A DNA stretch of 64,000 bases from Marinicella sp. (GTDB taxonomy: Bacteria > Pseudomonadota > Gammaproteobacteria > Xanthomonadales > Marinicellaceae). Shown here one piece after another: positions 1 through 59,563 of the stretch (positions are counted from its first letter, which is position 1; every line of letters begins with the position of its first letter). The notes under the pieces are model-generated. The model was given only the letters and a program-made list of their open reading frames with translations. It searched no databases and was not told the origin of the DNA. Made by a program: the position numbers and the translations under genes. Location: positions 928,001-992,000 of the forward strand of contig OZ246001.1 of the NCBI GenBank assembly GCA_965230295.1. The letters are read 5' to 3'.

Positions 1-3000
1 AACTGACACCTGTGATTAAGGAATCAGTGATTCCAGTTGGACTGGTGGTGGTGATTCGTTTAACTTGATTCAGGTCATCGTATTCGTAAGCCAACGTCAT
101 ACCTGATGGATATGACATGCTTGCCAGACGGTCATAAGAATCATAACTGTAACTGATCGTCAGATCATTGAAAGCTGCATAGCTGGTGGCATCAAACCCA
201 CTGACCTCTTGCGCTTTACTCAACAAATTTCCAAAGGCATCATAAGTGAATGCAGTCTGTCCACTTTGATCAATGAAGCCGGTCAGTTGGCCAAGCCCTC
301 CTGCACCTTGGTCATAGAAGAAATAATTGTCCAGGCTGCTGTCAGCATATTCCACCAAAGTCAAACGATTTCTGCCGTCATAAACCCTTTCAACCAGATG
401 ACCATTGGCATCTGTCTTACTGACTTTATTGCCTGCCGCATCATAAGTTTGATGACTGGTTCCACTGTCAGGACTGATCAAGGTGATCAGATTACCAAAA
501 TCATCGTAATGGTGGGTGGTCACATTGCCCCTGGCATCGGTGGTGGTCTTCACCCGGTCAGCCACATCATGACTGAATTGAGTCATGGTGTTGGCCGTTG
601 CAGGGACAGTACCCAAATAATCTTGAGTTTTTTGGGTCAAACGATTGAGGCTGTCATAACTGTAATCAGTCGTCACCCCTTTACCGTTGGTGTAGCTGTT
701 CAAGTCTCCATTGCTGCTGTAATCGTAAGTCACAGAAACACCGGATTGTTGTCTACTGGCCAAGTATCCATATGCATCAAACGATTGGTTGATCACTCGA
801 CTGGGTATCGAAACACCCTTACCAAAGGATTGTTCTGACAACAGGTTTCCTTCACTGTCCAATGTGTACTCAATGCGGTTGTCGGCCTCATCAGTGATCT
901 GTATCAACCGCAATGCATCGTCATAAGTCAGACTCAACCTTGTTGCTTTCGCTGTGCCATAATTCTCAGTCACAGAACTGAGGTGTCCGGTATGCAGATA
1001 GCCATATTGGGTCACCCGAGTTTCGGTGCCAACAGCCATGTATTCAGATGAGGACAACAGCCTATCTGTACTTGGTTCATAAGTGTACTCAATGGTCACA
1101 CCATTGGGCCTTTGCTCTTCGGTTACTTTTCCTGACGCTGACCAGCGAATCTGATCTCGTTCAACCAATCCACCAGGACCAGTCACCCGTTTCAGGCGAT
1201 TCTGCCTGGTTACCACAGGATTGTCTTTGGCATAGTATACGTAGTCTGTCTGATCAATGGCACCTGGTCTGGGACCATCATCCAAGCTGATTTGATTGAA
1301 AGGTCCTGCATAGGTATGAGCGACTGATCGGCTGATGGCAGTGCCATCTGGTCTGAAACCGCTGCTGCTGACAGACGTGACTTGACCATAGTTGTCATAA
1401 ACATAAGAAGTCACTTTGTTTTGACCATTGAAAACCGACGGCTCAGAGATACTGGCAACTTTGCCGTAGAATCGAGAATCATAAGTATAATCAGTGCGGC
1501 GTTCATGAGCACCTACACCAGGTTCATCGGCCTCTATGCGATAAGCAAATTGGCCCTTGGTGTCATAACCCCCGTAGGTGGTTGTGGTGCCTTCGTTGGT
1601 GTGGCTGATTAAATTGTTTTGAGCGTCATAATCGAATGATTCATTACCCAGTTCACAGCCAGAACATCCCGGACCACTGAAACTCTTCAAGCGCCACAAG
1701 TCACCTGATTTCTCAACTTCAAGGCTGCTCACAGCATCCAATGAATTTGTCAGCGTTCTGTTGATATCAGATGTATAAGAGATCGAAATTCGATTAACCC
1801 CATTGGCCAACTCACTGGAAATCAAGCGTCCCTGACCATCATGAACGAAGGTACTGTAACGAATGCCCCGTTGGTCAGTGATGCCGGTCAATAAGCCAGG
1901 ATGCTTACTATTTTCATAATGGAAGATCTTGCGATTCAACCTGAGACTGGACGGATAATTGATATGAGTTATGTTGTCCTGAGTATAAGTAAATGTCCAA
2001 CCACGACTGCTGCTGTCGGTCACACTGTTGATCCTAATAACCGAATCAATCACATCAAAGAAAATGTTGATGTACAAACCATACTCGTCAGTAACACGAA
2101 TGTGATCACTGTTGTGAGTGACTCGGATTCTTTCTCCAGTGTTCAATCGAATTTCATTCAAACGACCCTGTGAATCATAATATTCTTTGTCACCATTCTT
2201 GGCATAAAATGTCCATCCTTTGCTGGTTTGTTCCAAACCGCTTTTCACATGATTGGTGGCCACCCAATTAAATTGCAACCTGTAGTATTGATAGATACGA
2301 CCGTCAGGACGGGTCACATTCACCCACTCAACACCAGATTCATCCAAATAAATACCTGACACGCTGCGGTTGTAATCATGGGTCCAACGCATGCCTGTGT
2401 CACCATGGACAGGCTCTCCAAAGGCATCCACCTCTGTGTGTGAGTTATAAGTCACACCAAATTTCAAACCATGGCCCAGTTTGAGCAAGGGTTCATGGTG
2501 ATGGTGGTTACCAGTGGCCACATTGATCGCTTTGGCGATCACGGTACCGCCACCCTCACCCATGGGTGACATGGTTTGGGGACCCTGGTCGTCTTCGTTG
2601 ACACAACCTTTGTCTGTATTCAAATAAGAACCGACCGGGCAACTGATACCATAGTAGTATGTAGCTTGGTGGTCAATTCCATTCACTTCCGGCCAACGCA
2701 AGAAGCCATCATAAGACCAGTGTGGATGTTCAGCACCGGCATCAGAGTGAACACAAACCTGATCTGGTTCGGACACTTGTGCTGCCGCCATGTTACATAA
2801 AACTTGTGCTTTCGCCACATTTTCACTCAGGTAGTACACCTCAATTTGTTGTGGTACATCATCATCCAAATTAACCAGATTAGTCACTTCAGGAACCACT
2901 GCTGCGTAGGCTACATCAGTACTGTTGATGACATATGTCAGATCATAATTCACGTCATAATCAGTGATTTCATCATCCAGCCCAACCACTGTCAGTGATT

Positions 3001-6000
3001 GACTTTGTGACCAATCGGATGGCGTGAAAGTCAACTGACTGACTGCGATTTGTGCTTCGGTGGCGTCTGAAACATTGAAATCCAAAATCACATCAGCCGT
3101 CGGCTCAACTGACAAAGACACATCAAATTGCGCTTGTAATTGTCCCGCTTCATCGGTTTCAAAGCCACTCAGATTGTTCATGATTACAGCAGCCACATCA
3201 TCATCGATGTTGGTCACACTGACCACAGCCATTGCAAGCCCGTCATAATGACCATCTGTACTACTGACAGCGCCATTGATTGTGTAATCAACATCGCCAT
3301 CAACCACGCCATCGTCCACACCAGTGATCAGCACATCTTGGGCCACATTCCAATTGGCAGCAGTGAAAGTAACACCGCTGTCAACTGTGCCTTCTGAGAC
3401 ATCACTGCTGTTGAAAGCGATGGTCACATCGGCCTCTGGTTCTGAATTCAAAACCACACCAAATTTGGCAGTACCACCTTGCTCGGAGGTGGTCAGACCA
3501 TTCACAGGTAAGACCGTCACACCTGCCACATCATCATCGGTGTTGGTGGCATCAATGGCTGGAATTGCCAAGCCATCGTAGCTGGCATCTGCGCTGCTGA
3601 TTGTGATGCTGACTTGATAGTTTTGATCACCATCAATCAAAGCATCGTCTTGACCCGTTAAGGTGATGGTTTGTTCGGTACTCCAGTTGACTGTGGTAAA
3701 GACCAATCCAGTCGGTGCCACCAAGGCTTCTGATGCATCAGAGCTGTTGAAAGTCACCGTCACGTCAGCGGTAGGTTCAGCCGTCAAACTGATGGTCACA
3801 TCAACCGAACCACCGGCTTCACTGGTTTGCAAAGCCCCTTGTGGAGTGATGATTAACCCTGTGCTGTCATTGTCTTCATTGGTCAAATTAACATCTGCAA
3901 TGACAATGCCTTCGTAATTGACATCGGTACTGCTGCTGGTGAAGCTCAATAAATAAGCTTGGTCACCATCCACCAAAGGATCATCTTGTCCGGTGATTGT
4001 TACCACCTGTGCTTGATTCCAATTGATCGCATCGAACACCATCAAGCTGACATCTACAGTGCCTTCTTCTTCATCAGAACTGAGCAAAGAGACATTCACT
4101 GCATGCAGCGGTTCACTGGTTAAAGTAACTTCAAACTGTGCGGTACCGCCGGCTTCAGTGGTTGTTGTGCCACCAATCGCAGTCACAGAGACTCCGGCTT
4201 GGTCATCATCCGTGTTGGTCAGGCTCAGCGCATCAACCACCAAACCATCATAATTAACGTCAACACTGCTGACTGCCGTATTGATGTCATAGGTCACATC
4301 ACCATCAACCACCGCATCATCTTGACCGATCACATTAATGACTTGTGGCGTGTTCCAATCCGTTGAAGTGAAAGTCAACTGGGCAGGACTGACCTGTCCT
4401 TCGGTTTCAATCGAACTGGATAAATCCAAAATCACATTGTCAGACGGTTCTGTCAACAATGTGACTTCAAAACTGATCACATCACCTGTTTCAGAAGTGG
4501 TAGAACCAGCCAAAGCGGTGAACAGTACACCCGGGATGTCATCATCGACATTGGTCACTTCAAGATCGGCAATTTGTGTGGCAGCGAACTGGGCATCGGC
4601 TGATTGTATCGGACCAAATTGCAAAGCGGCCACCTGATCACCATCCACCAAGGTGTCATCCACACCGGTTACCGTGATGGCTTGTGGTAGCGACCAGTTA
4701 TTCAAATCAAACAACAATTGACTCACATCTGTTGAAATTTCACTGTCGTCACTGACCGTCACAGGTATGATCACATAATCTTCAGGCTGTTGTACCAGTG
4801 TGACATTGACCGTGGCCTGGTCGCCAGCTTCGCTGACCGCATTATCAACAGCCAGAACTTCAATCACCGAGGCATTGATTTGCAAAGTCTCTGTGCTGTA
4901 ACTGACCACCGATGAGGAGCCATCTGAGATTACGGCATACAAATATACCGCATTTCCAGCCAAGGCACTGATGTCCCAATCATAAGAGTCATCACTGTTT
5001 TCAGACAATCCGGCCACAATCAGCACACCATCGGAACCACTGTTGTCCAGATCATAGTACAAATCGATGTTGGCATCCGAGTCGGCATCACTGGCCAACC
5101 ATTCAATGCGGAAATTACTGGCCGCTGTGCTGGTGGCTTGTTGTAAGGAAACAAACTCAAAAGCAGGCACATCATCCACCAGATCATCAATCACAAAAAC
5201 TGACTGTAACGGAGAAAAGGGTGTTTCAGAACCGTCACCATTCAAAGCTTTGGCTTGCCAATAGTATTGGTTGCGATCGGTCATCGCCGGACTCAACGCC
5301 ACGGGCTGATCGACCACTTGTGATGAGAACAACACCGTGGCATCGGCATCTTCATAGATGTCCACTTGGAAAGTCTCGGCAAAACCGGTGTATTGATCAA
5401 TAGCGACCTTCAACTCTGGTGTGACTGTGGAAACCCAGCTTTGGTCGGCCGGGTTAACCGTTTTAATCAAAGGCGCACCGCCTAATTTCTGGGTGGTGAA
5501 TTGGCCGTATTGCCAACGACCGTAGCGGAATTCAGGGATCTTATTGCCCCGTGCTCGCCAATAATAGACTGTGTCATCAGTCAAACCAGTCACTGACCAA
5601 ATGACTTGTCCCGAGACATCAGTTACTTGAGTGAATTGTTGAATACCAGGTGATGTGAAATCTGGTTGCACATCAATTTCAATATCGATAAACACATCCA
5701 GTGGCGCATCCACAATCAAATCCACATCTACTCCGGTCAACGCTTGGTTGACCGGGGCATTCAATTGGTAACCGGTTTGCGGTGAAACGTTAACTCCGCT
5801 GGTGAATTGACTGTCCGCACACAACACTTCGTTGTTACCATCGGTTACTTTGGCGGTCCAGAAATAATCAACAAAAACTTCATATTCATTATAAGGCTGC
5901 CAGCTGCGCAGCTGACCTGAGCTGGCTTGTAACCAACCGGAATCAGCCAACATGATTGTTTTTGCAGCATCTTCAAACACTTCAAAACGATATTGCAAGG

Positions 6001-8263
6001 CATCGCCTTCGGCGTCCAGGCCTTGATTCACAGACAACTCAACGACGTTGTCATTGACTGACAAGCCAGCCTCAGGATACTCCAACCCACAATATTCAGG
6101 CGCGTTGTTCGTGGCACTGAAGAAGAACTCATCGTATGACCAGTTACTGTAGGTGACACCGTCAAACGCCCTTACCCGCCAAATATAACGAACATCTTCA
6201 GTCAAAATTTGACCGTGTGCCCACACGGTGGTGCTTAATTCAGATTCGTCAATGGTTTCGCTGAAGAACAGGTTCTGTAAACTGTTCTCATACATCTCGA
6301 ATTCATAGACCATGGCTGCGTCCACCGCACCCACTGAATTGACAATCATGAATTCAGTGGGCTCCACCGCCACTTGAGCACCTGCCAATGGGCTCTCAAT
6401 CACCACCGCTTGGGGCCGGTCTTCAACCGTAGGATTACCACCATGATCATGTTCTTGTTTATCTGTGGCACTGTCCTGATCAAAATCACCCGTGCCATCT
6501 TCATCCAAATCGCCAAAATGCTCCATTTCCCAGGCATCCAGTAATCCATCACCATCGGTGTCATCCGGGTCTAGTTGGGAGATGATCAATTGCACATTGA
6601 CATCCTCATCAACGGTGCCGTCACTGGCCCTGAACGAGGCATTAAAAGTGCCCTCAGCATCGGGGGTCCAATTAAACTGCCATGTACCCGATCCGGTGGC
6701 GGTTAAGCTTGCGCCTACAGGCAGACTCAATGGCGTCAGGGTCAACACATCCTGGCTGTCGTCATCGGTGACCAGAATATCGAAACTCATGGCTTGATTC
6801 ACATACCCAGTTTGCGGACTGGTCACCGCCACTTCGGGTCTGGCATTGGGTTCCAACCCATCAAATATCACTGTGTAAGTAACCGTGTTTCCATTGTGGC
6901 TGTAACTTTCATAAGTATCAAACAAACCGATGAAATAAGTGAAAACGCCCGGATCGCCCTCCACTTTGTATTGCCAAATATTTTCAGTTGGCAACACTTT
7001 ATTATCATCACGAATCGCGGTGATCATTTGCGGGATGCCTGCATAATCATCAGGCCAGTGAACAAATACTGGATCACCGTCTATTTCCGGAGTCACTGTC
7101 ACTGTCACAAAGCGTCTGTCATTGCTGACGCCGTTGTCTACAACTGCACCCTCCCCCAGTATTTCCAAATTATCTACCCGAACATCCATACCATTGGATT
7201 CATAGACATATAAAGTGTCTCCTGAGAAGGCCAGAAAATCAGTTACCCCATCACGGTCGGCTTCGGCCACTTTGACTTTGTGTAATAGGGTATGAGTTTG
7301 GGGTTGGCCGTCAATCAGGGAAGTTAACTCACCCCCTAAATCATCGGAATGAACATAATCTGCGCTAAAATCTACAAACTGGCCAGTCAATGAAGTCGTC
7401 ATCTGCCAACTGACCATGGCACTTTCCTCAGATGGCAACGTCCCAATGTCAGCCAGCAAGGAAGGCACAACGGGTTGGTCATTCACTGATGTACCTAACA
7501 ATGTAAAGTCAATCAACAGACCCTGATTATTTTCGGTGATGGTGGGTTGGGCCGATTCAATTTTCAGATTGGTGGCCTCACCATCGCCGATGTTTTTGAC
7601 GCGCAACCCCAGGTCGAATGGTTCTGCCGGTTCTATGATCGGTGGTGGTGTGTTGGGATCATCAGCAAACACATCAGCCGGCAGGAAATAATCCAGCTTC
7701 AGAAAAGGCGTAGGTCGCACTTCGATGTAGTCTGGGGCCACTTCAATGGTTTGGCTTTCTTCACCAAATTTGTAATTAACCGTTGCACCAACACCATAAG
7801 TTTCACCAATTTTATTGCCTGCAGGTACAGCTACTTTTCTTGGAATGATTAACCATCGTATTTCAGCCGTTTCACCAGCCGGTAATACGGCCATACCATC
7901 AGTCAATTTGGGCACGTCTTCCAAATCATCTATGGCCAATGGTTGGCCATTAGAATCTTCCAGTCCATCAAGGTAGTCAACGGTGATGAAAAACTTCACA
8001 TCATCCGTACCCTGTGCGTGGTTATAAGAAGCAGTGACCGGATTGCCATCGACATCCCTAAACACCACATTGATGCCCAGTTCACTCAAATCCAGCGCTT
8101 CCAAACCGTTGGTGATCACCATTTTCGCTTCGAACGCCTGACGCTCAAAAGTCACCTCTTGTCTGATTTCAATTTTCACCACCGCGCAGATCAATTCTGC
8201 CAGGGCCATCATGGGTGCCATCAACAACACCATTGCCAACATCATTTTTTTCATCATATTCAT
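1..8263 (-). CDS. Giant secreted multidomain protein (>2750 aa, 3' end outside window): signal peptide, 'CAVVKIEIRQEVTFERQAF' domain, TSP3-like Ca-binding loops, FN3-like repeats, six Calx-beta-like repeats, DUF6531-like segment, YD/Rhs repeats
   Basis: Not in the ORF track because it has no stop in the window. Manual translation from ATG 8263 (or 8257/8254, after AAAGGA) gives MNMMKKMMLAMVLLMAPMMALAELICAVVKIEIRQEVTFERQAFEAKM. The same frame reads DTDGDGLLDAWEMEHFGDLDEDGTGDFDQD (~6480-6570), AINVATGNHHHHEP (~2490-2530) and YSYDSYDRLASMSYPSG at the left edge. Confidence 0.9.
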   Translation of the reverse strand, partial: MNMMKKMMLAMVLLMAPMMALAELICAVVKIEIRQEVTFERQAFEAKMVITNGLEALDLSELGINVVFRDVDGNPVTASYNHAQGTDDVKFFITVDYLDGLEDSNGQPLAIDDLEDVPKLTDGMAVLPAGETAEIRWLIIPRKVAVPAGNKIGETYGVGATVNYKFGEESQTIEVAPDYIEVRPTPFLKLDYFLPADVFADDPNTPPPIIEPAEPFDLGLRVKNIGDGEATNLKIESAQPTITENNQGLLIDFTLLGTSVNDQPVVPSLLADIGTLPSEESAMVSWQMTTSLTGQFVDFSADYVHSDDLGGELTSLIDGQPQTHTLLHKVKVAEADRDGVTDFLAFSGDTLYVYESNGMDVRVDNLEILGEGAVVDNGVSNDRRFVTVTVTPEIDGDPVFVHWPDDYAGIPQMITAIRDDNKVLPTENIWQYKVEGDPGVFTYFIGLFDTYESYSHNGNTVTYTVIFDGLEPNARPEVAVTSPQTGYVNQAMSFDILVTDDDSQDVLTLTPLSLPVGASLTATGSGTWQFNWTPDAEGTFNASFRASDGTVDEDVNVQLIISQLDPDDTDGDGLLDAWEMEHFGDLDEDGTGDFDQDSATDKQEHDHGGNPTVEDRPQAVVIESPLAGAQVAVEPTEFMIVNSVGAVDAAMVYEFEMYENSLQNLFFSETIDESELSTTVWAHGQILTEDVRYIWRVRAFDGVTYSNWSYDEFFFSATNNAPEYCGLEYPEAGLSVNDNVVELSVNQGLDAEGDALQYRFEVFEDAAKTIMLADSGWLQASSGQLRSWQPYNEYEVFVDYFWTAKVTDGNNEVLCADSQFTSGVNVSPQTGYQLNAPVNQALTGVDVDLIVDAPLDVFIDIEIDVQPDFTSPGIQQFTQVTDVSGQVIWSVTGLTDDTVYYWRARGNKIPEFRYGRWQYGQFTTQKLGGAPLIKTVNPADQSWVSTVTPELKVAIDQYTGFAETFQVDIYEDADATVLFSSQVVDQPVALSPAMTDRNQYYWQAKALNGDGSETPFSPLQSVFVIDDLVDDVPAFEFVSLQQATSTAASNFRIEWLASDADSDANIDLYYDLDNSGSDGVLIVAGLSENSDDSYDWDISALAGNAVYLYAVISDGSSSVVSYSTETLQINASVIEVLAVDNAVSEAGDQATVNVTLVQQPEDYVIIPVTVSDDSEISTDVSQLLFDLNNWSLPQAITVTGVDDTLVDGDQVAALQFGPIQSADAQFAATQIADLEVTNVDDDIPGVLFTALAGSTTSETGDVISFEVTLLTEPSDNVILDLSSSIETEGQVSPAQLTFTSTDWNTPQVINVIGQDDAVVDGDVTYDINTAVSSVDVNYDGLVVDALSLTNTDDDQAGVSVTAIGGTTTTEAGGTAQFEVTLTSEPLHAVNVSLLSSDEEEGTVDVSLMVFDAINWNQAQVVTITGQDDPLVDGDQAYLLSFTSSSTDVNYEGIVIADVNLTNEDNDSTGLIITPQGALQTSEAGGSVDVTISLTAEPTADVTVTFNSSDASEALVAPTGLVFTTVNWSTEQTITLTGQDDALIDGDQNYQVSITISSADASYDGLAIPAIDATNTDDDVAGVTVLPVNGLTTSEQGGTAKFGVVLNSEPEADVTIAFNSSDVSEGTVDSGVTFTAANWNVAQDVLITGVDDGVVDGDVDYTINGAVSSTDGHYDGLAMAVVSVTNIDDDVAAVIMNNLSGFETDEAGQLQAQFDVSLSVEPTADVILDFNVSDATEAQIAVSQLTFTPSDWSQSQSLTVVGLDDEITDYDVNYDLTYVINSTDVAYAAVVPEVTNLVNLDDDVPQQIEVYYLSENVAKAQVLCNMAAAQVSEPDQVCVHSDAGAEHPHWSYDGFLRWPEVNGIDHQATYYYGISCPVGSYLNTDKGCVNEDDQGPQTMSPMGEGGGTVIAKAINVATGNHHHHEPLLKLGHGLKFGVTYNSHTEVDAFGEPVHGDTGMRWTHDYNRSVSGIYLDESGVEWVNVTRPDGRIYQYYRLQFNWVATNHVKSGLEQTSKGWTFYAKNGDKEYYDSQGRLNEIRLNTGERIRVTHNSDHIRVTDEYGLYINIFFDVIDSVIRINSVTDSSSRGWTFTYTQDNITHINYPSSLRLNRKIFHYENSKHPGLLTGITDQRGIRYSTFVHDGQGRLISSELANGVNRISISYTSDINRTLTNSLDAVSSLEVEKSGDLWRLKSFSGPGCSGCELGNESFDYDAQNNLISHTNEGTTTTYGGYDTKGQFAYRIEADEPGVGAHERRTDYTYDSRFYGKVASISEPSVFNGQNKVTSYVYDNYGQVTSVSSSGFRPDGTAISRSVAHTYAGPFNQISLDDGPRPGAIDQTDYVYYAKDNPVVTRQNRLKRVTGPGGLVERDQIRWSASGKVTEEQRPNGVTIEYTYEPSTDRLLSSSEYMAVGTETRVTQYGYLHTGHLSSVTENYGTAKATRLSLTYDDALRLIQITDEADNRIEYTLDSEGNLLSEQSFGKGVSIPSRVINQSFDAYGYLASRQQSGVSVTYDYSSNGDLNSYTNGKGVTTDYSYDSLNRLTQKTQDYLGTVPATANTMTQFSHDVADRVKTTTDARGNVTTHHYDDFGNLITLISPDSGTSHQTYDAAGNKVSKTDANGHLVERVYDGRNRLTLVEYADSSLDNYFFYDQGAGGLGQLTGFIDQSGQTAFTYDAFGNLLSKAQEVSGFDATSYAAFNDLTISYSYDSYDRLASMSYPSGMTLAYEYDDLNQVKRITTTSPTGITDSLITGVS
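2855..4870 (-). repeat. Six diverged ~112-aa Calx-beta-like repeats inside the giant CDS
   Basis: Units end in VTNVDDD / TNTDDD / TNEDND / TNTDDD / TNIDDD / VNLDDD at about 335-345 bp spacing. Units carry FxxxxWxxxQ and GxDDxxxDGD-type motifs. Confidence 0.75.
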
Positions 8264-8310
8264 CCTTTATTGAATTGTCTGAATGTATTCTTCGTTCCTG
8301 ATCAAATGGC

Positions 8311-12393: not shown

Positions 12394-12522
12394 AGCAATT
12401 TTTCCTTAATAACTTGTTTCTATTTGCAATGTGGGTGGGGACCACTGTGGTCTTATTGCCACCTTCATTGCAGTTTTATATTCAATCCATATTTATTCAG
12501 AACATGTTTTCTTTGGTACCAG

Positions 12523-18500: not shown

Positions 18501-21500
18501 GCCAATCCAGCAAGGCCGTGCGTCCGTTGCCATCAACCACCACACTGATTGACACTGGTTCTGGTGTTTGGTTGTTGAAGACAATTTCAACCGCTGTAGA
18601 TATACTGGTGTTGCCCGCACAATCAACGGCAGTGAACTGGAAAGTATTGACCCCTTCGGACAAGCTCACTTCAGTTTGCCATGTGGTTTCATTGTCTGCA
18701 GCAACAACTTGTTGGCCATCCAAAAATACAGCGGTGCCTAATTCTTTGGTGCCTGAAATCAATTGGGAACTGACTGATGTGGGAGAAATCACCGCATTCA
18801 CACTCAATTGGACCGGATTGATGGTGTCAACCACGAAAGTCGATCCAAAAAGATCGCTGTCATTGCCTTGTGTATCTTGAACGGCAGCACTGATGGTGTA
18901 ATTTCCATCAAGCAAAGTGGATGTTGGGGTAAAGTTATAAAAATCTCCAACGATCTCTGTTGTGCCGTTGACAGGATTGCCATCTAAAGAGAGGTCAAAT
19001 GTTGATTGAGCCAAGTTGAATCCATTGCCCAAATGATCATACAGCGACAAACTGACCACATTTGGACTTTGTGAAACACACTGCAAATCAAATGGAGTGG
19101 CTGAGACAACTGCAGGCCGTCCTGCTGCATAAAAATAAGTGATTCTGACACTGTCAGATACATTGCCTGCTCGATCAACTGCCGCCACATCCCAAGTGGT
19201 TGTACCTGCAGGCAAATTGATCAGTGCCGACCATTCATTATCTGAATAACCAGTGACCACTTGTCCATTGATGCTGATGGCCGTATTGGCAGGACGGGTA
19301 CCACGCAAAACTTGTAACTCTGAGGCCACCAAATTGCTGGCCGGTTCTACTGCTACCGCCCAGAGTGTAGGAGAGTCTGGTGGCGTGATGTCATATTCAA
19401 TCACATGAGTGTATTGGTCATCCACGGGTTCACCTGGTACCCCATCGGAATCCTGGTCCAAAACATCGGCCACGACATCCATTTGGTAATCACCTTCTTG
19501 ATCCATGGATTTACTTAACACCAAATCCACCACTCCTGAGCCAACCAATTCAATGGTTTGCACCTGGATCGAATCACTGTTGTGAGAGATCAAAAAGTCT
19601 GAAGTCTCTAAATTAAGGACATCTATCGCCTGGTTAAAGCGCAATCTGATTCGGTTGGCTGCGTTGTTCAAATGTGCCTGATCTGTATGCACAATTTGTA
19701 AAGGTAAATCGACAGATTCTAAGATAACGCTGCCAAATTCACCGCTTTGCGACCCTTGGGCCGTTGAAGAGACCTCACCCCCAAAAGCCTCAACCCTGGT
19801 GTTTAAATTACTGCCTTGATTGACTCCATAGTGGATGGCCACGCGACCTCCACCACCACCCCAGCCCCAACCATCGGATGAGCCGCCATTGGCCTGGAAT
19901 GTTCCATCACCGCTCAGTGCTTGGACTTCTAACCAAATAGATCCACCACTGCCACTGCCATTATAGTCAATATCACTGCCATCAGCCTCCAATGAACCTT
20001 CATGGTGCATGTATTTGGCATCGATCTTCAGTGCACCACCACCTCTGGTATTGCCTCCACTGCCACCAACACCGACCAATGTAGGCATTTGTTCATCACC
20101 ATATATCGCATTGGTCGTACCACCACTGGTAGCTTGTACGCCGCCCAGTCCTCCATGTGACCCTGCTGCGGTTCCGGACAGTTCATTGCTTTTAAGCATC
20201 CCTGCTCCTTTAAGATTGATGCCCGATTCACTGTCAATCAAAACCTGATTGGCATTCAAATGAACCCTGTCAGTTAAGTCTTCAGCCGGTTGCTGAATAA
20301 CCTGGCCGTTATTGATTAATGCAATTTTATTCCACTGTTGCACATAAGATGGGATGTAGGTCCAGTTATCAACAATCAAATCTTGGACACTCAGATTCAA
20401 CACATCACCTTGAATCCATGAAAACTGTTCACCAGCGATCATCTCACTGGTGAAAGCGGTATTTTGCTCAATAACAGAATCATAAATAGTTATGTTTTTT
20501 ACCTGCACATTGGTGCCTGGCTCAAACATGACAGAAGCATTGAGAACTGTCAGATATTCACCATTGGTGTTTCGACCGACCTCACCAATGGCAGTTGTTG
20601 CACCCACAATCCAATCAGCCTCATTGGCAATGATGATTTCACCCAAAGGTTGGGCATTGTCTTTCAAATAAACAGTTCCGGCACCGCCACCTTCAAGACC
20701 AGCCTGGAAGCCACCATAAGCCATCACCTGCGAGGTCAAATCAAATCCATTCAAGGTGTCATAGTAAACCGCAACCCGGCCACCGCCACCAGACCCGTAG
20801 TCGGTGTAAGTACCATTGGCACTGATCGTACCAGCACCACTGAGCTCATTCACTTCAAGCCACACCGAACCACCACTGCCACCGCGCCTGTTGACCGATT
20901 GGGCATCGGCCCGAATCGAACCGGATAAATCCAATACGCCGGTAACCGTTAACCGGATCGCACCACCACCGCGGTTGTAATAACCACTGGTACCCAGATC
21001 AACCGGATTGCGCAGATCACCATAAACCGGGTTGGTAAAACGACTTGGATTATCGTCCCACAACATCCCCGAACCACCGTGACTGGCTCCAGAAAGTGAG
21101 CCCATTATATTGGTATCATGATCTGCTGCTTTACCACTCACATCAATCGATGAATCAGCACTGACTGACAAATCAGTCACGGTGATGTGGGTGCCTTGAT
21201 AACCTTCGCTGTGGGTCAAAACTGCACCGTTGAGTAAATTGAGGGTAGATAAGTTCTGGGCGACATTCATCGTTACCACTGCACCATCAAGGGTCAAATC
21301 TACCAGGCCAGACTGACTGGCATCGATGGTCAACTGGGCTCCACCGGTGACCGATAAATTGGTCCAGGTCGGGTGATCCACACCCAAAACAATGTGCACA
21401 CCGTCCTCAATCACGTGTGTGGAAGAATCTGGTATATTGAAAATATTTTGGTGTGAAACCATCGACTGGTTGATGTCAAAGGTCGTGTTGACCGTCAGTT

Positions 21501-23622
21501 GGCCCAGTTGTAGCCACTGGCTGACTGCACTCATCACCAGTTCATCCAGCACCAAATCATGGTTTTGTTCGACCAAACCATCCACCACTGAAACACGGCT
21601 CAGCTGATTGACATCTGACTGAATATCCACAAAGGCATGACTGATCTGGATGGGTTCATCCAAGTCACCTGAAGCTGGTTGGTTCAACGGAGTGGCAGCA
21701 CCCATAATCCAATCAGCCTCATTGGCAATGATGATTTCACCCAAAGGTTGGGCATTGTCTTTCAAATAAACAGTTCCGGCACCGCCACCTTCAAGACCAG
21801 CCTGGAAGCCACCATAAGCCATCACCTGCGAGGTCAAATCAAATCCATTCAAGGTGTCATAGTAAACCGCAACCCGGCCACCGCCACCAGACCCGTAGTC
21901 GGTGTAAGTACCATTGGCACTGATCGTACCAGCACCACTGAGCTCATTCACTTCAAGCCACACCGAACCACCACTGCCACCGCGCCTGTTGACCGATTGG
22001 GCATCGGCCCGAATCGAACCGGATAAATCCAATACGCCGGTAACCGTTAACCGGATCGCACCACCACCGCGGTTGTAATAACCACTGGTACCCAGATCAA
22101 CCGGATTGCGCAGATCACCATAAACCGGGTTGGTAAAACGACTTGGATTATCGTCCCACAACATCCCCGAACCACCGTGACTGGCTCCAGAAAGTGAGCC
22201 CATTATATTGGTATCATGATCTGCTGCTTTACCACTCACATCAATCGATGAATCAGCACTGACTGACAAATCAGTCACGGTGATGTGGGTGCCTTGATAA
22301 CCTTCGCTGTGGGTCAAAACTGCACCGTTGAGTAAATTGAGGGTAGATAAGTTCTGGGCGACATTCATCGTTACCACTGCACCATCAAGGGTCAAATCTA
22401 CCAGGCCAGACTGACTGGCATCGATGGTCAACTGGGCTCCACCGGTGACCGATAAATTGGTCCAGGTCGGGTGATCCACACCCAAAACAATGTGCACACC
22501 GTCCTCAATCACGTGTGTGGAAGAATCTGGTATATTGAAAATATTTTGGTGTGAAACCATCGACTGGTTGATGTCAAAGGTCGTGTTGACCGTCAGTTGG
22601 CCCAGTTGTAGCCACTGGCTGACTGCACTCATCACCAGTTCATCCAGCACCAAATCATGGTTTTGTTCGACCAAACCATCCACCACTGAAACACGGCTCA
22701 GCTGATTGACATCTGACTGAATATCCACAAAGGCATGACTGATCTGGATGGGTTCATCCAAGTCACCTGAAGCTGGTTGGTTCAACGGAGTGGCAGCACC
22801 CATAATCCAATCAGCCTCATTGGCAATGATGATTTCACCCAAAGGTTGGGCATTGTCTTTCAAATAAACAGTTCCGGCACCGCCACCTTCAAGACCAGCC
22901 TGGAAGCCACCATAAGCCATCACCTGCGAGGTCAAATCAAATCCATTCAAGGTGTCATAGTAAACCGCAACCCGGCCACCGCCACCAGACCCGTAGTCGG
23001 TGTAAGTACCATTGGCACTGATCGTACCAGCACCACTGAGCTCATTCACTTCAAGCCACACCGAACCACCACTGCCGCCGCGCCTGTTGACCGATTGGGC
23101 ATCGGCCCGAATCGAACCGGACAAATCCAATACGCCGGTAACCGTTAACCGAATCGCACCACCACCGCGGTTGTAATAACCACTGGTACCCAAATCAACC
23201 GGATTGCGCAGATCACCATAAACCGGGTTGGTAAAACGACTTGGGTGATCGTCCCACAACATCCCCGAACCACCGTGACTGGCTCCAGAAAGTGAGCCCA
23301 CTATATTGACATCATGATCTGCTGCTTTACCACTCACATCAATCGATGAATCAGCACTGACTGACAAATCAGTCACGGTGATGTGGGTGCCTTGATAACC
23401 TTCGCTGTGGGTCAAAACCGCCCCGTTGAGCAATTGAACTGATGGAAAAGCATGTACACCATCGATGGTCACGATGGTTCCATCAATGATCAATTCTTGG
23501 CCATCATAAGTGGTATCTCCGTCACCAATCACCGTTTCAGTTGTTAAAGTGACTGAACATACTTCCTGCGCAAAAAGCATTAAAAATGCTGTAAATACCC
23601 AAAATTCCTTTTTTAAATTCAT
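12523..23622 (-). CDS. Giant secreted Gly-rich-repeat / Ig-like / fibronectin type III protein with Cys-rich poly-Gly C-terminus
   Basis: 3699 aa with a signal peptide. N-terminal repeats carry GASHGG..YGD..P..LG..GGGAIRL..GGSGGSVWL..GGGGRVA. Big/FN3 motifs follow (YYAVVA-type strands, AVDxAGN), then a FETNVPAPVV domain, 9 Cys, and a Gly/Pro tail. Confidence 0.93.
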   Translation of the reverse strand: MNLKKEFWVFTAFLMLFAQEVCSVTLTTETVIGDGDTTYDGQELIIDGTIVTIDGVHAFPSVQLLNGAVLTHSEGYQGTHITVTDLSVSADSSIDVSGKAADHDVNIVGSLSGASHGGSGMLWDDHPSRFTNPVYGDLRNPVDLGTSGYYNRGGGAIRLTVTGVLDLSGSIRADAQSVNRRGGSGGSVWLEVNELSGAGTISANGTYTDYGSGGGGRVAVYYDTLNGFDLTSQVMAYGGFQAGLEGGGAGTVYLKDNAQPLGEIIIANEADWIMGAATPLNQPASGDLDEPIQISHAFVDIQSDVNQLSRVSVVDGLVEQNHDLVLDELVMSAVSQWLQLGQLTVNTTFDINQSMVSHQNIFNIPDSSTHVIEDGVHIVLGVDHPTWTNLSVTGGAQLTIDASQSGLVDLTLDGAVVTMNVAQNLSTLNLLNGAVLTHSEGYQGTHITVTDLSVSADSSIDVSGKAADHDTNIMGSLSGASHGGSGMLWDDNPSRFTNPVYGDLRNPVDLGTSGYYNRGGGAIRLTVTGVLDLSGSIRADAQSVNRRGGSGGSVWLEVNELSGAGTISANGTYTDYGSGGGGRVAVYYDTLNGFDLTSQVMAYGGFQAGLEGGGAGTVYLKDNAQPLGEIIIANEADWIMGAATPLNQPASGDLDEPIQISHAFVDIQSDVNQLSRVSVVDGLVEQNHDLVLDELVMSAVSQWLQLGQLTVNTTFDINQSMVSHQNIFNIPDSSTHVIEDGVHIVLGVDHPTWTNLSVTGGAQLTIDASQSGLVDLTLDGAVVTMNVAQNLSTLNLLNGAVLTHSEGYQGTHITVTDLSVSADSSIDVSGKAADHDTNIMGSLSGASHGGSGMLWDDNPSRFTNPVYGDLRNPVDLGTSGYYNRGGGAIRLTVTGVLDLSGSIRADAQSVNRRGGSGGSVWLEVNELSGAGTISANGTYTDYGSGGGGRVAVYYDTLNGFDLTSQVMAYGGFQAGLEGGGAGTVYLKDNAQPLGEIIIANEADWIVGATTAIGEVGRNTNGEYLTVLNASVMFEPGTNVQVKNITIYDSVIEQNTAFTSEMIAGEQFSWIQGDVLNLSVQDLIVDNWTYIPSYVQQWNKIALINNGQVIQQPAEDLTDRVHLNANQVLIDSESGINLKGAGMLKSNELSGTAAGSHGGLGGVQATSGGTTNAIYGDEQMPTLVGVGGSGGNTRGGGALKIDAKYMHHEGSLEADGSDIDYNGSGSGGSIWLEVQALSGDGTFQANGGSSDGWGWGGGGGRVAIHYGVNQGSNLNTRVEAFGGEVSSTAQGSQSGEFGSVILESVDLPLQIVHTDQAHLNNAANRIRLRFNQAIDVLNLETSDFLISHNSDSIQVQTIELVGSGVVDLVLSKSMDQEGDYQMDVVADVLDQDSDGVPGEPVDDQYTHVIEYDITPPDSPTLWAVAVEPASNLVASELQVLRGTRPANTAISINGQVVTGYSDNEWSALINLPAGTTTWDVAAVDRAGNVSDSVRITYFYAAGRPAVVSATPFDLQCVSQSPNVVSLSLYDHLGNGFNLAQSTFDLSLDGNPVNGTTEIVGDFYNFTPTSTLLDGNYTISAAVQDTQGNDSDLFGSTFVVDTINPVQLSVNAVISPTSVSSQLISGTKELGTAVFLDGQQVVAADNETTWQTEVSLSEGVNTFQFTAVDCAGNTSISTAVEIVFNNQTPEPVSISVVVDGNGRTALLDWQSYDELANGGNIDFYTVYSSTTGSFDNISQGTEVATIPAGTKTYQVTEILPPQTIHYAVVATDILGLYDPSVTSVEALFVDVEPPEMPGSIVVDQSTESSVDIYWSHSINSAGDMTDYRVFLNDVAIGDVDSSISSFSITNLDRATSYLVEVSAVDGFDNVSDRRSQTAVTWPNHPTVVSTEPHDGRVTLTWEHAVPADVVNQYRVYHAIGTIDPEVHTGINYGSGASQAPLSLDIDGLTNGQSYQFAVIAINRHGDFDPVFTSVSETPLADADGPSIDAVTISGAPAVDAMVVRNSGLIVVDASDDSGVSSIRFETSSGGMSVTDSNAIDGFQAMWNLADEVDGLVTLNIVAEDVFGNQSTANYQINVALDAPPPPTINEPLDGAQVGELEVSVVGQSVAGATVELEVVGVGSITGIPVDSNGQFQRFVSLQDGNNTLRARTVISRPANGTTVGPYTVFNVTVNQDIPSAPSGLSAQAKPMGVIQLTWNADNDGSTVGYHIYRSTSANGVKTLQTAGNPVVTTFYNDLTPGDGQYFYWISGVNALDGSGIEGPLSGMASAVSDQTAPVVQSLVFDKTQPFVTGLVGVTLTMSEPLAEVPFLSFIPSAAGTSPIIVDFQPSSTAEFTGTIEFGGESFQSSATAVLSAYDRAGNLGTNTGPITDISIDTQGPEVMTLEMSPNSPIDYDGSPELSVSFTLSEATMDMPLVWYQLSGNNRAEIQIDSVIFNAGVYSAVLNNVPSDAGVSPETLSFRIHAKDIAGNVNNGIAINNQFQIYREDLPPLEAPQGLAATSLPDGQVRLTWFPVLNAAEYELYRKPVGPGNLVYLDRTGPTVTDYVDSPADGEYVYAVASVRSENSDEAVSGTSLTVVAIADSVAPTAPQMLTLSETGSGIQAQWEPNDPADAVAHYRLYRNGNPQPTLNNINPDNLVNDLVTVVDGQPISGASTYLVTAVDAVGNESAVSNEASINPSLLPVQNFNISVSDTSSPSLNWSHNIATEFDVYQIDNGNAVKLNTSGTISGTTTYTDDSYAGSGRTYAVVAINGGESLPNTLKLPDLTADLMVEQSLKRGLMNQLFMEITNHEAEAIDHVTMTLMVEGETYHSNEVSIAGFGSAEVSLNIPGNMPVGTEEVLVDMTIHHRPTDGSSANIESQLAIPVEEGGLIISITTNNFVRGTTGEVQLLIQNPGEQSVDLITAKGTGSLDSGDVHLRLEDDDGNTLALAGFRQVLGNNVFTFPTGVTVARIPAGTSYLSSSQPINIPANAGDHVVVVASIEKMYFDQNSGQAIILQGVETRQPTVLAETSYAGELLGVSEPLIVQGETTSISGQAVSRNNGQPVADVPLNLSLRNEGFEQNIDVFTDAFGQFSYTHTAGSTDAGTYQVSVTHPDILDRPMDGSFQVGRIYADFQDENVRIPYNVDTEHLLYLKAPRGLEYQNVRVELVSSDVPAQAITLPAALPLLNHPMNWQAVPVLLNVSNGGVSQGQLTVRIISDNYGTLELGRATLNFEAANGMPALEVEPHLLDLRSNPGVAVTDTFEMTNNGFADAEELSLRIVELDQQGQVVDVAPSWIYLMSNATIPVLGIYQSVEVNVGMTPPSNICDQIPDPCEILSGYVIEITGDNIDPFYVPLTAMVTTNDMGTVAFQTANVYTGLDPLEYPDPIGLANVRIRLTSEIDSNRVYEWVTDASGAVQTEPINIGRYRYQVTSSNYEDLNGRMRVLPDPQSGPPGNSEFFFLQRNLITIDWSVTEITIEDRYEVVMNATFETNVPAPVVMISPTVTNLPDMYPGDVYTGLLEIKNLGLIRAHDLALNFPNEDEYFIYEILGEVPESIEANETHYLPFKLINKRSLVPGADGNAGGGGCSGYTNQINGAYKFQCPSGEIDGTASPSYVSYVAGDDCGEPGIKLPKPPRNSRDGGPLDFRCWQADAALWCGGPGANEESSPCAPECEGDQCCNVSGAGGGGGGGGGGGGGGGGPGGGGGGGGPGGGGPGSGN
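20608..23430. repeat. Near-perfect 1098-bp (366-aa) tandem repeat, about 2.6 copies
   Basis: AATCCAATCAGCCTCATTGG recurs at 20608, 21706 and 22804, exactly 1098 bp apart. The translated units are almost identical (DVNIVG vs DTNIMG; DDHPS vs DDNPS). Confidence 0.95.
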
Positions 23623-23645
23623 AACAAATGCCTGTTTAATCGTAA

Positions 23646-24521
23646 TTATTTCATGGTTACTTTCAGTGCTGGGTCAGAAACCCAGAATTTTTTAAATTGG
23701 CTGTGCTCAGCCGTATCGGCCACGATGTTCATGGCGATGTATTGGTGTTGCTGTTTGCGGTAGATGTTTTTTTGTGGGTCCACCACTTGCCAGCCACCGT
23801 CAAGCCAAACCTCACTCCACGTATGGAATTCGGTCGGATCGAGAATGGAGTCTTGCTTCACAACATAGCCATTGACTGCACGGGCTGGAATGCCCAATAT
23901 GCGGTTGATGGCAGTATTTAAATAGGCGTACTCTGTGCAGTCACCAGACAGGTTCTTGGCAGCAAAGGCGGCCCCTTTGTCTTTCGAGCCATAGCCTGTG
24001 TATTCAATATTTTCTACCAACCAGTTATGTACCTGTTCGGTGGCTTCATCACCCAAGTATTCAAACTGTTGTGCAACCTCAATAACGTGTTCATTTTCCA
24101 ACTCGATTTGCGGCTGTGAAGTCAGAAATAAGGGCTGTGCAGAGTCAGCACCCAGGGCTGTTTCTGACAGCTTCAGTTGGGTTGTGATCACAACTTCCTT
24201 TTTGCCATACGGTGCCAGTCGTTCAATGTTGAACTGCAGAATCACATTGCCATAAGCATCCTGCTGGCGTGTGAATGGATCGTTGCTGGTCACCTTTGTA
24301 ACTTGCTGCGTGCTGGTCAAAGACACAGGTGCAAACACGTAAAATTCAATGTTTTCAGATGCTGTTGACTGCTTATTTTCCAACAAAAATGCGTATCGGA
24401 TGGTGCGGTCGATGTTCCATTCCTGGACGATGGTTGCCTGTTTGATGAACAGCCACCACAGCCCAATGACCAACAAGGTCATGGCAGCAACCCACAGAAT
24501 CATGCGCTTCTTCATGAACAT
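23646..24521 (-). CDS. Membrane-anchored transglutaminase-like (Cys-His-Asp) protein
   Basis: N-terminal TM helix. GDCTEYA...GIPARAVNG...FHTWSEVW...WQVVDP gives an intact transglutaminase-like triad. Confidence 0.92.
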   Translation of the reverse strand: MFMKKRMILWVAAMTLLVIGLWWLFIKQATIVQEWNIDRTIRYAFLLENKQSTASENIEFYVFAPVSLTSTQQVTKVTSNDPFTRQQDAYGNVILQFNIERLAPYGKKEVVITTQLKLSETALGADSAQPLFLTSQPQIELENEHVIEVAQQFEYLGDEATEQVHNWLVENIEYTGYGSKDKGAAFAAKNLSGDCTEYAYLNTAINRILGIPARAVNGYVVKQDSILDPTEFHTWSEVWLDGGWQVVDPQKNIYRKQQHQYIAMNIVADTAEHSQFKKFWVSDPALKVTMK

Positions 24522-25408
24522 GACATTCTGGCTCCGTCGGTGCGACGTTTTTGGTATTGCACAATGCGCCGATTGTGTTCATGCACTTGTAAGGCTGATT
24601 GCACTTTGCTGGCACCAACGGCATAGACATTGGCCTTAAGTTTGGTGCGCCATTTTTTTACAACCTCGCGTGCATCAAGATGATCTGGAATGACCAGTAA
24701 AACGTTCTTTATCAATCCTTTGGCTTCAGTGATTTGTTGGGTAAATGATTGTGGAGACTGCAATATAGCAAGGCCATCCAAGGCGATCACACTGTCAAAG
24801 TATCGATCCATATGGGGGTTGTTGGAGCTGTCAACAATTTGCCAAAAACCGGTATCACCACCCATGGCATTGTTCAGTAAAAACAGGTCATCTAATTTTG
24901 AATACAAAGATTCACCTTCGATTACTGACTTCCAGTAGTCAACCCCTCCATCGAGAATTTTGACGTTGTTAAATCCGCGTTTCAGCAGTTTCTTGTGCAG
25001 GTCTTCCAGATGTCGATAAGACTGGCCTTGCCCAACCAGCACCACTTCTCGTTCTTTGAAAAATGGTATGGTCAATAATTTCGAATGGGGTAAATTGAAT
25101 GATTGATCGATATGATTGTGTTGATAGGCATCTACATTGCGAATATCGACCACCATCAATTGAGGTTTATTTTGACTGATTTTGTGCTGTAGCAGATACG
25201 GAGAAATGTATTTCTCAGGATCACGATGCCACTCAATCTTTTGCTCTGGTTGCACCAAATCAATGGATTTGAAATCACACTGCAAAATGGCTTGTTCAGC
25301 CAATACGGGTAGAGCCACAATTAAAATTGCAGCTGCAAAAAAGGTATTACGCGCCCTCATAGCAGCTGAAATAATAGATCGGTATTGGGATCGGTATCGG
25401 GTGTGCAA
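24512..25408 (-). CDS. Exported rhodanese-like domain protein, probably non-catalytic (likely start ATG 25360)
   Basis: VVDIRNVDAYQHNHIDQSFNLP and GFNNVKILDGGVDYW are rhodanese signatures. The active-site loop reads VVLVGQG with no Cys. Signal-peptide-like MRARNTFFAAAILIVALPVLA. Confidence 0.85.
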   Translation of the reverse strand: MHTRYRSQYRSIISAAMRARNTFFAAAILIVALPVLAEQAILQCDFKSIDLVQPEQKIEWHRDPEKYISPYLLQHKISQNKPQLMVVDIRNVDAYQHNHIDQSFNLPHSKLLTIPFFKEREVVLVGQGQSYRHLEDLHKKLLKRGFNNVKILDGGVDYWKSVIEGESLYSKLDDLFLLNNAMGGDTGFWQIVDSSNNPHMDRYFDSVIALDGLAILQSPQSFTQQITEAKGLIKNVLLVIPDHLDAREVVKKWRTKLKANVYAVGASKVQSALQVHEHNRRIVQYQKRRTDGARMSCS

Positions 25409-27943: not shown

Positions 27944-27960
27944 CTCGAATTCGCTCCCAA

Positions 27961-52650: not shown

Positions 52651-52737
52651 TGTGGATTCCAAAGATAAATTGGACTGAACAATGGTAATTTGTACTGTAC
52701 ATCGCTATTTTGTACTGTACAGCGCTATCTTGGACTG
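52651..52737 (+). repeat. Transposon end with four contiguous 20-bp TnsB-type binding sites
   Basis: TG(G/T)ACTG at 52671, 52691, 52711 and 52731. Units TCCAAAGATAAATTGGACTG / AACAATGGTAATTTGTACTG / TACATCGCTATTTTGTACTG / TACAGCGCTATCTTGGACTG. Confidence 0.85.
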
Positions 52738-52749
52738 ATGAGCGCAGAA

Positions 52750-55415: not shown

Positions 55416-55418
55416 TAA

Positions 55419-56078: not shown

Positions 56079-56108
56079 ACATGAAGGAATTATCATGAGT
56101 AGCATTGA

Positions 56109-56813: not shown

Positions 56814-56817
56814 TCCT

Positions 56818-56875: not shown

Positions 56876-56880
56876 TCTAA

Positions 56881-59560: not shown

Positions 59561-59563
59561 TAA

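Follow-up and report, generated by a model that had tools for sequence, protein, structure and literature searches.

What does a set of exported proteins made up of a giant, an Rhs protein, a fusion of these two kinds, a transglutaminase-like (TGase) enzyme and a rhodanese without its catalytic cysteine do for a Marinicella cell? The five genes in question were analysed in a stretch of 64,000 nucleotides (the window; positions 928001–992000 of a single 4.0-Mb contig, from a genome that is 97.9% complete). They lie head to tail and co-oriented on the minus strand, at window positions 2–25408, as read from the list of open reading frames (ORFs) with translations. From gene 1 onward, genes 1 and 2 overlap by 10 nt, and the gaps that follow are 23, 129 and 47 nt. 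An earlier note, made from the letters of the window, had described the five co-oriented genes (with a last gap of ~50 nt), and this was confirmed. The two giants and two Rhs shells that it counted are also present, but they are not separate proteins throughout, as gene 5 is giant scaffold and Rhs shell at once. The features needed for the argument are as follows.

24512–25408, minus strand: gene 1, pseudo-rhodanese, 298 amino acids (aa) from a TTG start; Pfam Rhodanese.
23646–24521, minus strand: gene 2, TGase, 291 aa; Pfam Transglut_core.
12523–23622, minus strand: gene 3, giant, 3699 aa; fn3, Big_13 and Glucodextran_B.
8311–12393, minus strand: gene 4, Rhs, 1360 aa; RHS_repeat and Rhs-associated core.
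2–8263, running off the window, minus strand: gene 5, giant-Rhs fusion; RHS_repeat and Rhs-associated core.
6914–8263, minus strand: N-terminal module of gene 5 (N-module), ~450 aa, starting C-A-x-V-K-I-E-I-x-Q-E-x-T-x-E-R-Q-A-F.

The five protein families form a conserved module and travel together. The reading that we favour, tentatively and at somewhat less than an even chance, takes the five genes for the cargo and accessory portion of an envelope system that is conserved, Sec-dependent and not yet described, and that exports giant fibres together with an Rhs-encapsulated payload. Conservation was assessed in 24 genomes of the same genus and in a scan of one genome per species, which gave 40 loci with a TGase gene. 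Neighbours within ±10 kb were called by all-against-all BLAST clustering and with a hidden Markov model from alignment A2; many of the 40 loci are cut by contig ends, and four (L053, L056, L057 and L058) hold distant TGases only. The TGase subfamily is rare (18 proteins in a word-based, less sensitive search). Its gene is directly preceded by that of the rhodanese in 33 of the 40 loci; a gene-3-type giant is found in 9, a gene-4-type Rhs in 5 and an N-module protein in 7, with an eighth if a fragment of 97 aa is counted that lies where the L028 contig ends. The five families occur together in several gammaproteobacterial families, and they are also seen in Betaproteobacteria-type loci, in a Cystobacter genome and in other lineages. 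Within the genus the TGase orthologue is present in 2 of the 24 genomes, that of the window and a record of Marinicella pacifica (G002), which keeps the order rhodanese-TGase-giant as far as its contig end. Upstream of its rhodanese gene, G002 (L018:3926–9041) has genes for an HI0933-like flavoprotein, a glutathione S-transferase and a PD40/amidohydrolase protein, not the MoxR-DUF58-TgpA genes seen in the window. This different chromosomal context is compatible with an independent insertion or with rearrangement.

An independent test came from genomes drawn evenly from the class. The N-module family was found in 9 of 401 genomes and the TGase family in 7 of the 400 that were scored for it (G306 was unscored); all 7 TGase genomes, which belong to 7 different families, are among the 9 with an N-module. 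With the self case set aside, 5 of the other 6 TGase genomes have both genes side by side or close together. All five genes occur in the order of the window in G167 (rhodanese-TGase-giant-Rhs-(fragments)-N-module), which is the same record as L025 and hence not independent of the 40-locus scan. The order is Rhs-N-module-rhodanese-TGase in G166, N-module-rhodanese-TGase-giant up to the contig edge in G212, and N-module-TGase-giant-Rhs in G274, so that giant homologues adjoin the TGase gene in G274, G212 and G167. In G409, 2.2 kb separate the TGase gene from that of the N-module protein, and in the fragmented assembly of G158 the two are on different contigs. In G167 the stretch between the Rhs and N-module genes (C3:593855–596869, L089) holds two fragments, one of an N-module (184 aa) and one of an Rhs core (401 aa), which look like recombination remnants or displaced gene ends. 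As 7 of 7 TGase genomes fall among the 9 N-module genomes, and as the adjacency is repeated in varied orders, chance juxtaposition is excluded. Linkage of the two small enzymes to giant and Rhs genes in other genomes had been set beforehand as a refutation test by the earlier note; the 40 loci and the class sample decide it in favour of the note.

A further link, which the earlier note had not foreseen, is to a dedicated machine in relatives. It is seen at 17 of the 40 loci, which are called type-B loci for the presence of the machine and are mostly of Betaproteobacteria type; in these the rhodanese and TGase genes are the last two genes of a putative machine operon. The operon codes for a GspF/PilC-like and a GspE/PilB-like protein, three membrane proteins matching no family, a secretin and three or four prepilin-type pseudopilins; 13 of the 17 loci show both ATPase and secretin, and the remainder are truncated. 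The Pfam and NCBIfam matches of these proteins (T2SSF, T2SSE, Secretin and N_methyl) are all below the curated equivalog cut-offs. The type-B secretin combines N-terminal TPR repeats with STN, Secretin_N and Secretin domains and carries a Cohesin domain at its C-terminus (PF00963, E = 9.9e-12; L051:5057–7447 and 12 others); the phrase 'cohesin domain' was absent from the papers that a full-text search on such secretins returned. Exactly one N-module gene is present in 12 of the 15 type-B genomes searched, and in 11 of these 12 its coordinates place it 1–14 kb upstream on the same strand. Three neighbourhoods were read from the DNA. G041 has the order giant-Rhs-N-module-pseudopilin-GspF and continues into the machine; G042 has giant-Rhs-two unknown ORFs-N-module-GspF; in G044 the giant is on the other strand and is followed by N-module-GspF. 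Thus giant, Rhs, N-module and machine are together in G041 and G042, and giant, N-module and machine in G044.

The Rhs proteins of the type-B loci also bear on what is exported. Three of their tails (G041, G042 and L048) carry PT-HINT with HNH, PT-HINT with Tox-REase-9, or PT-HINT alone; an ORF with DUF4265 lies downstream of one type-B Rhs gene. Because of the PT-HINT tails with HNH or Tox-REase-9, the type-B Rhs proteins are taken to be polymorphic nuclease toxins, and for the same reason the system looks at least as much like one for toxin export or display as like an adhesin. Of the surface assembly, or teneurin-like adhesin, proposed in the earlier note, the conserved and linked set therefore stands, but export or display of a toxin is at least equally likely.

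The export reading can be put as a sequence of steps. All five proteins have N-terminal Sec-type signal or anchor sequences, as the earlier note had also stated (judged here by eye from the translations), and they would cross the inner membrane by Sec. In the periplasm the anchored TGase-like Cys enzyme, with the dead rhodanese as its partner, may process or link the cargo, whether by cleavage, as by a LapG-type protease, or by transpeptidation or cross-linking. The cargo would then exit through a secretin, the dedicated one where it is present; in the window genome one of two resident clusters resembling a type II secretion system (T2SS) may serve. Outside the cell, the beta-solenoid and immunoglobulin (Ig) fibres of genes 3 and 5 would display or deliver the Rhs shell. 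The window copy may act on non-kin targets or be adhesive, and not bactericidal, because the cargo of gene 4 is an orphan without an immunity gene and the shell of gene 5 looks non-cleaving. We regard it as possible, but rather doubtful, that the five families and the type-B machine together make up a new pathway of Gram-negatives for the delivery or display of Rhs toxins, independent of type VI secretion systems (T6SS), of Tc toxins and of two-partner secretion (TPS). In such a pathway a machine resembling those of type IV filaments would export or present giant beta-solenoid/Ig fibres that bear the Rhs capsule, and the N-module with its lone Cys might be the handle for the machine; or else the TGase-like enzyme and the pseudo-rhodanese might process it covalently.

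Gene 4 is an Rhs protein by its YD/RHS repeats (PF05593 RHS_repeat, 145.5 bits against a cut-off of 22; TIGR01643, 119.1 bits) and its Rhs-associated core (TIGR03696, 60.4 bits against a cut-off of 32.5) with an intact DPLG...DPTGL. The motif DPxG...DPxGL marks closure and autoproteolysis of Rhs shells; the earlier note had assigned release at DPxG to the Rhs shells, which would hold for gene 4, where the motif is kept, but not for gene 5, where it is degenerate. The N-terminal region of gene 4 is kept in relatives (E = 1e-15 to 1e-41). Behind the motif lies a tail of its own kind:

8314–8823, minus strand: C-terminal cargo domain of gene 4, ~170 aa with 11 Cys, poly-Pro and a poly-Gly-Trp end; an orphan.

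The tail has no Pfam match with E < 0.01, and a search of 5.8 billion proteins returned, among proteins of 748–2380 aa, only the tail itself. A C-terminal toxin domain followed by an immunity gene, the mark of polymorphic toxins, is thus not seen at gene 4 of the window; its orthologues elsewhere carry PT-HINT and nuclease domains. Two unrelated proteins of the same genome, of 627 aa (contig 129418–131298, minus strand) and 661 aa (1763422–1765404, minus strand), have Ser/Gly-rich tails with at least 10 Gly and then a final Trp, so that a poly-Gly-Trp end is not specific to the cluster.

The stop codon of gene 5 is 1232 nt beyond the start of the window, in DNA that was read past the edge, and the full-length protein is 3164 aa. 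It is ordered as signal peptide, N-module, TSP3-like motif (at residue 569), six repeats of ~112 aa (counted by regular expression), Rhs shell and a tail of 46 aa. YD repeats and Rhs-associated core are both recognised (PF05593, 128.7 bits; TIGR03696, 49.7 bits). In place of DPxG...DPxGL the closure motif reads NPVG...QRLGQ, so that an intact cleavage motif is lacking and the shell looks non-cleaving. The 46-aa tail is conserved, and a homologue of 66% identity (P0024) ends similarly. The closest relative of the Rhs part is a third Rhs protein of the same genome (phmmer E = 1e-222; 68–74% DNA identity over stretches). This protein of ~1470 aa (contig 1379225–1383655, minus strand) begins with what resembles a signal peptide, keeps DPIG...DPNG intact and has ~110 aa of Cys-rich tail, and its gene stands alone amid unrelated ORFs.

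The N-module is the most striking unexplained element of the set. No Pfam or NCBIfam family matched the first 450 residues of gene 5 at E ≤ 0.01. The AlphaFold2 (AF2) model shows four tandem beta-sandwiches (predicted local distance difference test, pLDDT, 84.8), for which Foldseek returned generic Ig and pilin arrays only. From the ESM Atlas, only clusters of DUF11/CARDB type came up (scores 0.81–0.82). The family is very large, with 2602 cluster representatives (50% identity clusters) at E ≤ 0.001 among 1.84 billion. Its members always carry the module at the N-terminus, on otherwise variable proteins of 432–7485 aa. The motif C-A-x-V-[KR]-I-E-I-x-Q-x-L-[TS]-L-E-R-Q-A-F is present in 146 of the 150 best matches, and its Cys (Cys26 in gene 5), ~4 residues past the predicted cut of the signal peptide, is the sole Cys of the module in 107 of the 146. 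As several proteins of the cluster end in Cys-x, a shared C-terminal Cys sorting signal was considered and rejected, since a Cys falls within the last 6 residues in no more than 15 of 150 N-module members; the idea survives for the rhodanese alone, where the Cys is invariant. Binding of the type-B secretin cohesin to the TSP3/dockerin-like motif of gene-5 proteins was not supported, because the distribution of the motif is opposite to that expected: by our own regular expression it is present in 6 of 7 proteins from machine-less genomes (window, L027, L029, G166, G274 and G409, not L019) and in none of the 4 proteins from type-B-like loci (L074, L075, L076 and L036).

Gene 3 runs from a signal peptide through beta-solenoid repeats and an Ig/FN3 array to a conserved C-terminal part of ~1700 aa, the portion kept in relatives, and a Cys-rich tail that ends in poly-Gly. 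Two features stand out:

20590–23450, approximate, minus strand: triple repeat of 1098 nt (366 aa) inside gene 3, 3 copies spaced 1098 nt apart, 98–99% identity.
12526–12650, approximate, minus strand: poly-Gly C-terminal tail of gene 3, from the translation and the Tandem Repeats Finder rows at 12545–12636.

An AF2 model of one repeat unit (pLDDT 84.9, predicted template modelling score 0.85) consists entirely of short beta strands, and the repeat is predicted to be a beta-solenoid. Foldseek gave 0 matches to this model at E ≤ 0.001; the weak top matches were parallel beta-helix enzymes and tailspikes. The Cys/Gly-rich pattern of the C-terminus recurs in relatives. Homology between the tails of genes 3 and 4 was rejected (BLASTP E = 1.7).

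Gene 1 probably starts at the ATG at 25360, which gives a protein beginning MRARN with a signal peptide. It is an exported protein with a rhodanese fold (PF00581, 38.9 bits against a cut-off of 22.2) and a C-terminal domain of unknown fold. The catalytic Cys of rhodanese sulfurtransferases is replaced by Gly, in line with the Cys-less rhodanese of the earlier note, and an alignment of 33 homologues, examined by eye, has G, N, D or S at this position, with no Cys either in the window protein or in those homologues that span the column. Two other cysteines are kept: the penultimate C-terminal one is invariant in 28 of 28 sequences and an N-terminal one is present in at least 90% (alignment A3).

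The intact Cys-His-Asp TGase-like enzyme of the same description could also be verified. Gene 2 matches Transglut_core (PF01841, 76.5 bits against a cut-off of 23), and 18 of 18 members of its family share the residues Cys195, His233 and Asp248. At the N-terminus an uncleaved membrane anchor appears by eye more likely than a cleaved signal. The closest solved relative by sequence is 3isr (E = 1.7e-13), an uncharacterised 'putative cysteine protease'. The Pfam scan gave PF01841 only and no match to the LapG family, the accession of which we take to be PF06035. Prediction of a complex between residues 30–291 of the TGase (alignment A1) and the rhodanese (A3), run without controls, gave scores of 0.01 and 0.00 against a mark of 0.32, which speak neither for nor against binding. 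The chemistry of the pair may be that of a protease, a transpeptidase or a cross-linker.

Several observations weigh against the export reading. In the window genome, searches with the machine's three unnamed membrane proteins and with the last of its pseudopilin-like proteins gave no homologue, and the three secretins of that genome match the type-B secretin over the core only (E ~1e-17 to 1e-20). The outcome was alike in 5 of 5 other machine-less genomes searched. In the machine-less genome of L024 a T2SS is found 10 kb upstream of the rhodanese gene, with housekeeping genes in between; as this T2SS is canonical-looking, it was rejected as the missing machine and its position is probably coincidence. 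A folded Rhs shell may, moreover, be too large for a secretin channel. The window shows neither a recognisable toxin domain nor an immunity-like ORF; only 47 nt lie between genes 4 and 5, and a pyruvate kinase gene converges on gene 5. No rhodanese gene adjoins that of the TGase in G274 and G409. The N-module occurs without the TGase in G156, which is 100% complete, and in G232, with a 104-aa fragment only, and its family (2602 representatives) appears much larger than that of the TGase (18 proteins, 40 loci); for these reasons the TGase–N-module pair is probably not obligatory for every N-module protein. Finally, promoter-like sites (25 against 28.5 expected from a shuffled control) and terminator-like sites (15 against 16.0) in the window are not above expectation.

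With regard to the exit from the window cell, two T2SS-like clusters are present elsewhere in its genome, at 654–659 kb and 852–868 kb, together with other type IV filament genes. In the latter region, at 857485–867925 (L069) and 60–70 kb from the gene cluster, GspE-GspF, five ORFs resembling pseudopilins, L/M-like ORFs and a secretin lie beside purL. This complete T2SS-like cluster is a candidate exporter for the gene cluster.

The alternative that survives best is a non-toxic assembly of surface fibres or adhesins, in which giants and Rhs shells would be structural, teneurin-like adhesion proteins and the TGase would join them covalently, by isopeptide bonds between Gln and Lys, into a matrix or a layer at the surface; we consider it unlikely, though by no means negligible. 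The intact catalytic triad agrees with it, and so does the start of the N-module, which is near-invariant and rich in Lys/Arg and Gln (K or R in 139 of 146, Gln conserved at two positions). A gene 5 shell that has no cleavage motif yet keeps a conserved 46-aa tail, a window with neither immunity gene nor recognisable toxin domain, and the predicted fibre-like folds (beta-solenoid and Ig arrays) point the same way. However, orthologous type-B Rhs proteins carry the PT-HINT and nuclease domains typical of polymorphic toxins, gene 4 retains the DPxG...DPxGL release motif, and the nearest solved relative of the TGase, 3isr, is annotated only as a putative cysteine protease.

The same enzyme could instead act as a protease. 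In the LapA/LapG/LapD system a giant adhesin is joined with a periplasmic Cys protease of transglutaminase fold and a regulatory partner, the cyclic di-GMP receptor LapD. An adhesin-release switch of this type would have the TGase-like protease cut the N-module of the giants and free them from an outer-membrane channel, with the pseudo-rhodanese as regulator or sequestering partner. This is a distinctly less probable alternative, and it overlaps with the export reading in the role given to the TGase enzyme. A TGase-fold enzyme with Cys-His-Asp beside giant repetitive exported proteins, an N-module that is strongly conserved on otherwise variable proteins, and an inactive enzyme-fold partner that is adjacent in 33 of 40 loci speak for such a switch. 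Lap adhesins, however, are RTX substrates of the type I secretion system (T1SS) and LapG belongs to another Pfam family; at the window locus the enzyme is in PF01841 without a LapG family match, the giants have Sec signal peptides and no RTX/T1SS features, no GGDEF/EAL receptor is encoded, and MoxR, DUF58, TgpA and pyruvate kinase genes flank the cluster (LapD was not searched genome-wide).

The proteins might also be retained in the envelope and serve a role internal to the cell without secretion, the machine being linked through regulation of a pilus. The precedent is the exported Rhs-like protein Bd0109 of Bdellovibrio, for which Capeness et al. 2013 (PMC3818213) tie an Rhs-family protein to pilus extrusion and retraction; in the available text of that paper its gene lies beside pilus genes, and other Rhs genes next to pilus genes are noted. 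The window genome and 5 other machine-less genomes have no outer-membrane translocon in cis, which speaks for this explanation. On the other hand, Bd0109 resembles gene 4 by description only, and nuclease toxin domains in relatives and fibre architectures of 3000 aa fit poorly with a periplasmic regulator; we hold retention to be improbable.

A place in a characterised system (T6SS Rhs effector, Tc/ABC toxin, two-partner contact-dependent inhibition or T1SS RTX adhesin), or a chance juxtaposition in an island, is the least probable of all, for although the cluster is patchy within the genus (TGase orthologue in 2 of 24 genomes), has a GC content slightly above that of the next 8 kb and contains Rhs proteins, best known as components of T6SS or Tc toxins, all five proteins have Sec-type N-termini and no PAAR, VgrG, Tc, TPS or RTX match in Pfam, the whole genome gave neither PAAR nor VipB, and the 7 TGase genomes are all among the 9 N-module genomes of ~400, with the adjacency repeated in different orders.

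The searches behind this dismissal agree with the earlier note, which had seen no gene for VgrG, PAAR, TcA/TcB, T1SS or TPS. PAAR (PF05488) and VipB/TssC (PF05943) were not found in the window genome by searches that were positive in control genomes, so the link to PAAR or VgrG and the T6SS expected of a T6SS Rhs effector are both missing. TcA and TcB were looked for in the five proteins, without a match. Tc toxins and teneurins share with the set an Rhs/YD shell that encloses a C-terminal domain and, in addition, very large partner proteins. They differ in that the window parts all have Sec signals and in that teneurins are eukaryotic membrane proteins.

Closest in the cargo are the Sec-dependent Rhs/YD toxins of Zhang et al. 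2012 (PMC3482391), a signal-peptide trafficking class labelled 'T2SS/Sec', in which Tox-REase-9 is listed with HINT, RHS and 'T2SS'. The signal peptide, RHS repeats, DPxG closure and, in relatives, PT-HINT with nuclease tails are common to both. The class is defined by the signal peptide only, and in the available part of that paper no dedicated machine, giant partners, stand-alone active TGase or pseudo-rhodanese are described; the TGase domains treated there are inactive, N-terminal and fused to toxins, whereas gene 2 stands alone with an intact triad. Gene 4 of the window further differs by its orphan tail and the absence of an immunity gene.

With T2SS and type IV pili the related clusters have in common the GspE/PilB-like and GspF/PilC-like proteins, the PilQ/GspD-like secretin and the prepilin-type pseudopilins. 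They differ by the TPR and cohesin domains of the secretin, the three unmatched membrane proteins and the rhodanese-TGase end of the operon; the window itself has no machine gene and its genome no close homologue. In Myxococcus xanthus, the Kil apparatus (Seef et al. 2021, PMC8460266) resembles the type-B clusters as a machine of the type IV filament family connected with contact-dependent killing. Which toxin it uses is unknown, and whether Kil also secretes is a question that the authors raise. Kil is Tad-like, and the available text names no partner of the Rhs, giant, TGase or rhodanese kind; the comparison is by description only. In Omnitrophota, giant genes directly follow a conserved secretion locus of >10 genes that includes gspD, gspE and gspF (West-Roberts et al. 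2023, preprint, doi 10.1101/2023.11.21.568195), and very large exported proteins with adhesion-type domains thus lie beside a T2SS-like locus. These giants, set beside the window by description only, belong to another phylum; 'transglutaminase' occurs 0 times in the text available, and the Rhs-like helices there are a structural comparison only. A description of the present gene set was not found in full-text literature searches, which largely did not extend to subscription journals; within that reach the view of the earlier note that no characterised system has this composition is upheld.

The chromosomal setting is one of housekeeping genes: next to gene 5 is a convergent pyruvate kinase gene, and next to gene 1 a divergent MoxR-DUF58-TgpA operon. 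The latter (26044–29919, plus strand) codes for a MoxR AAA ATPase, a DUF58 protein and a TgpA-type transglutaminase of 652 aa (TgpA_N and Transglut_core), a second and unrelated TGase-family gene 2.5 kb from gene 2. Weak matches to ORFs of ~660–680 aa in most genomes of the genus suggest that the TgpA-type gene is the conserved one. The GC content of the cluster is 0.45–0.495, slightly above that of the next 8 kb (0.425–0.446); at 52000–60000 it falls to 0.36–0.40, compared with 0.42–0.49 elsewhere in the window.

Overall, the set is best filed as a combination of parts whose kinds are known, namely an Rhs polymorphic toxin and, in relatives, a machine of the type IV filament type, to which two accessory families and the N-module are added. 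Genomes commonly encode Rhs proteins that have a plain signal peptide, and their route past the Gram-negative outer membrane is unsettled. The cluster gives such proteins a defined and conserved set of partners and, in relatives, a dedicated secretin-based machine as well, and this makes the passage of Rhs proteins across the outer membrane directly testable in cultivable strains that are not pathogens, such as those of Chitinolyticbacter, Rhizobacter, Hahella and Marinicella. It also provides a genomic context for the very large, unannotated N-module family and for the pseudo-rhodanese/TGase pair.

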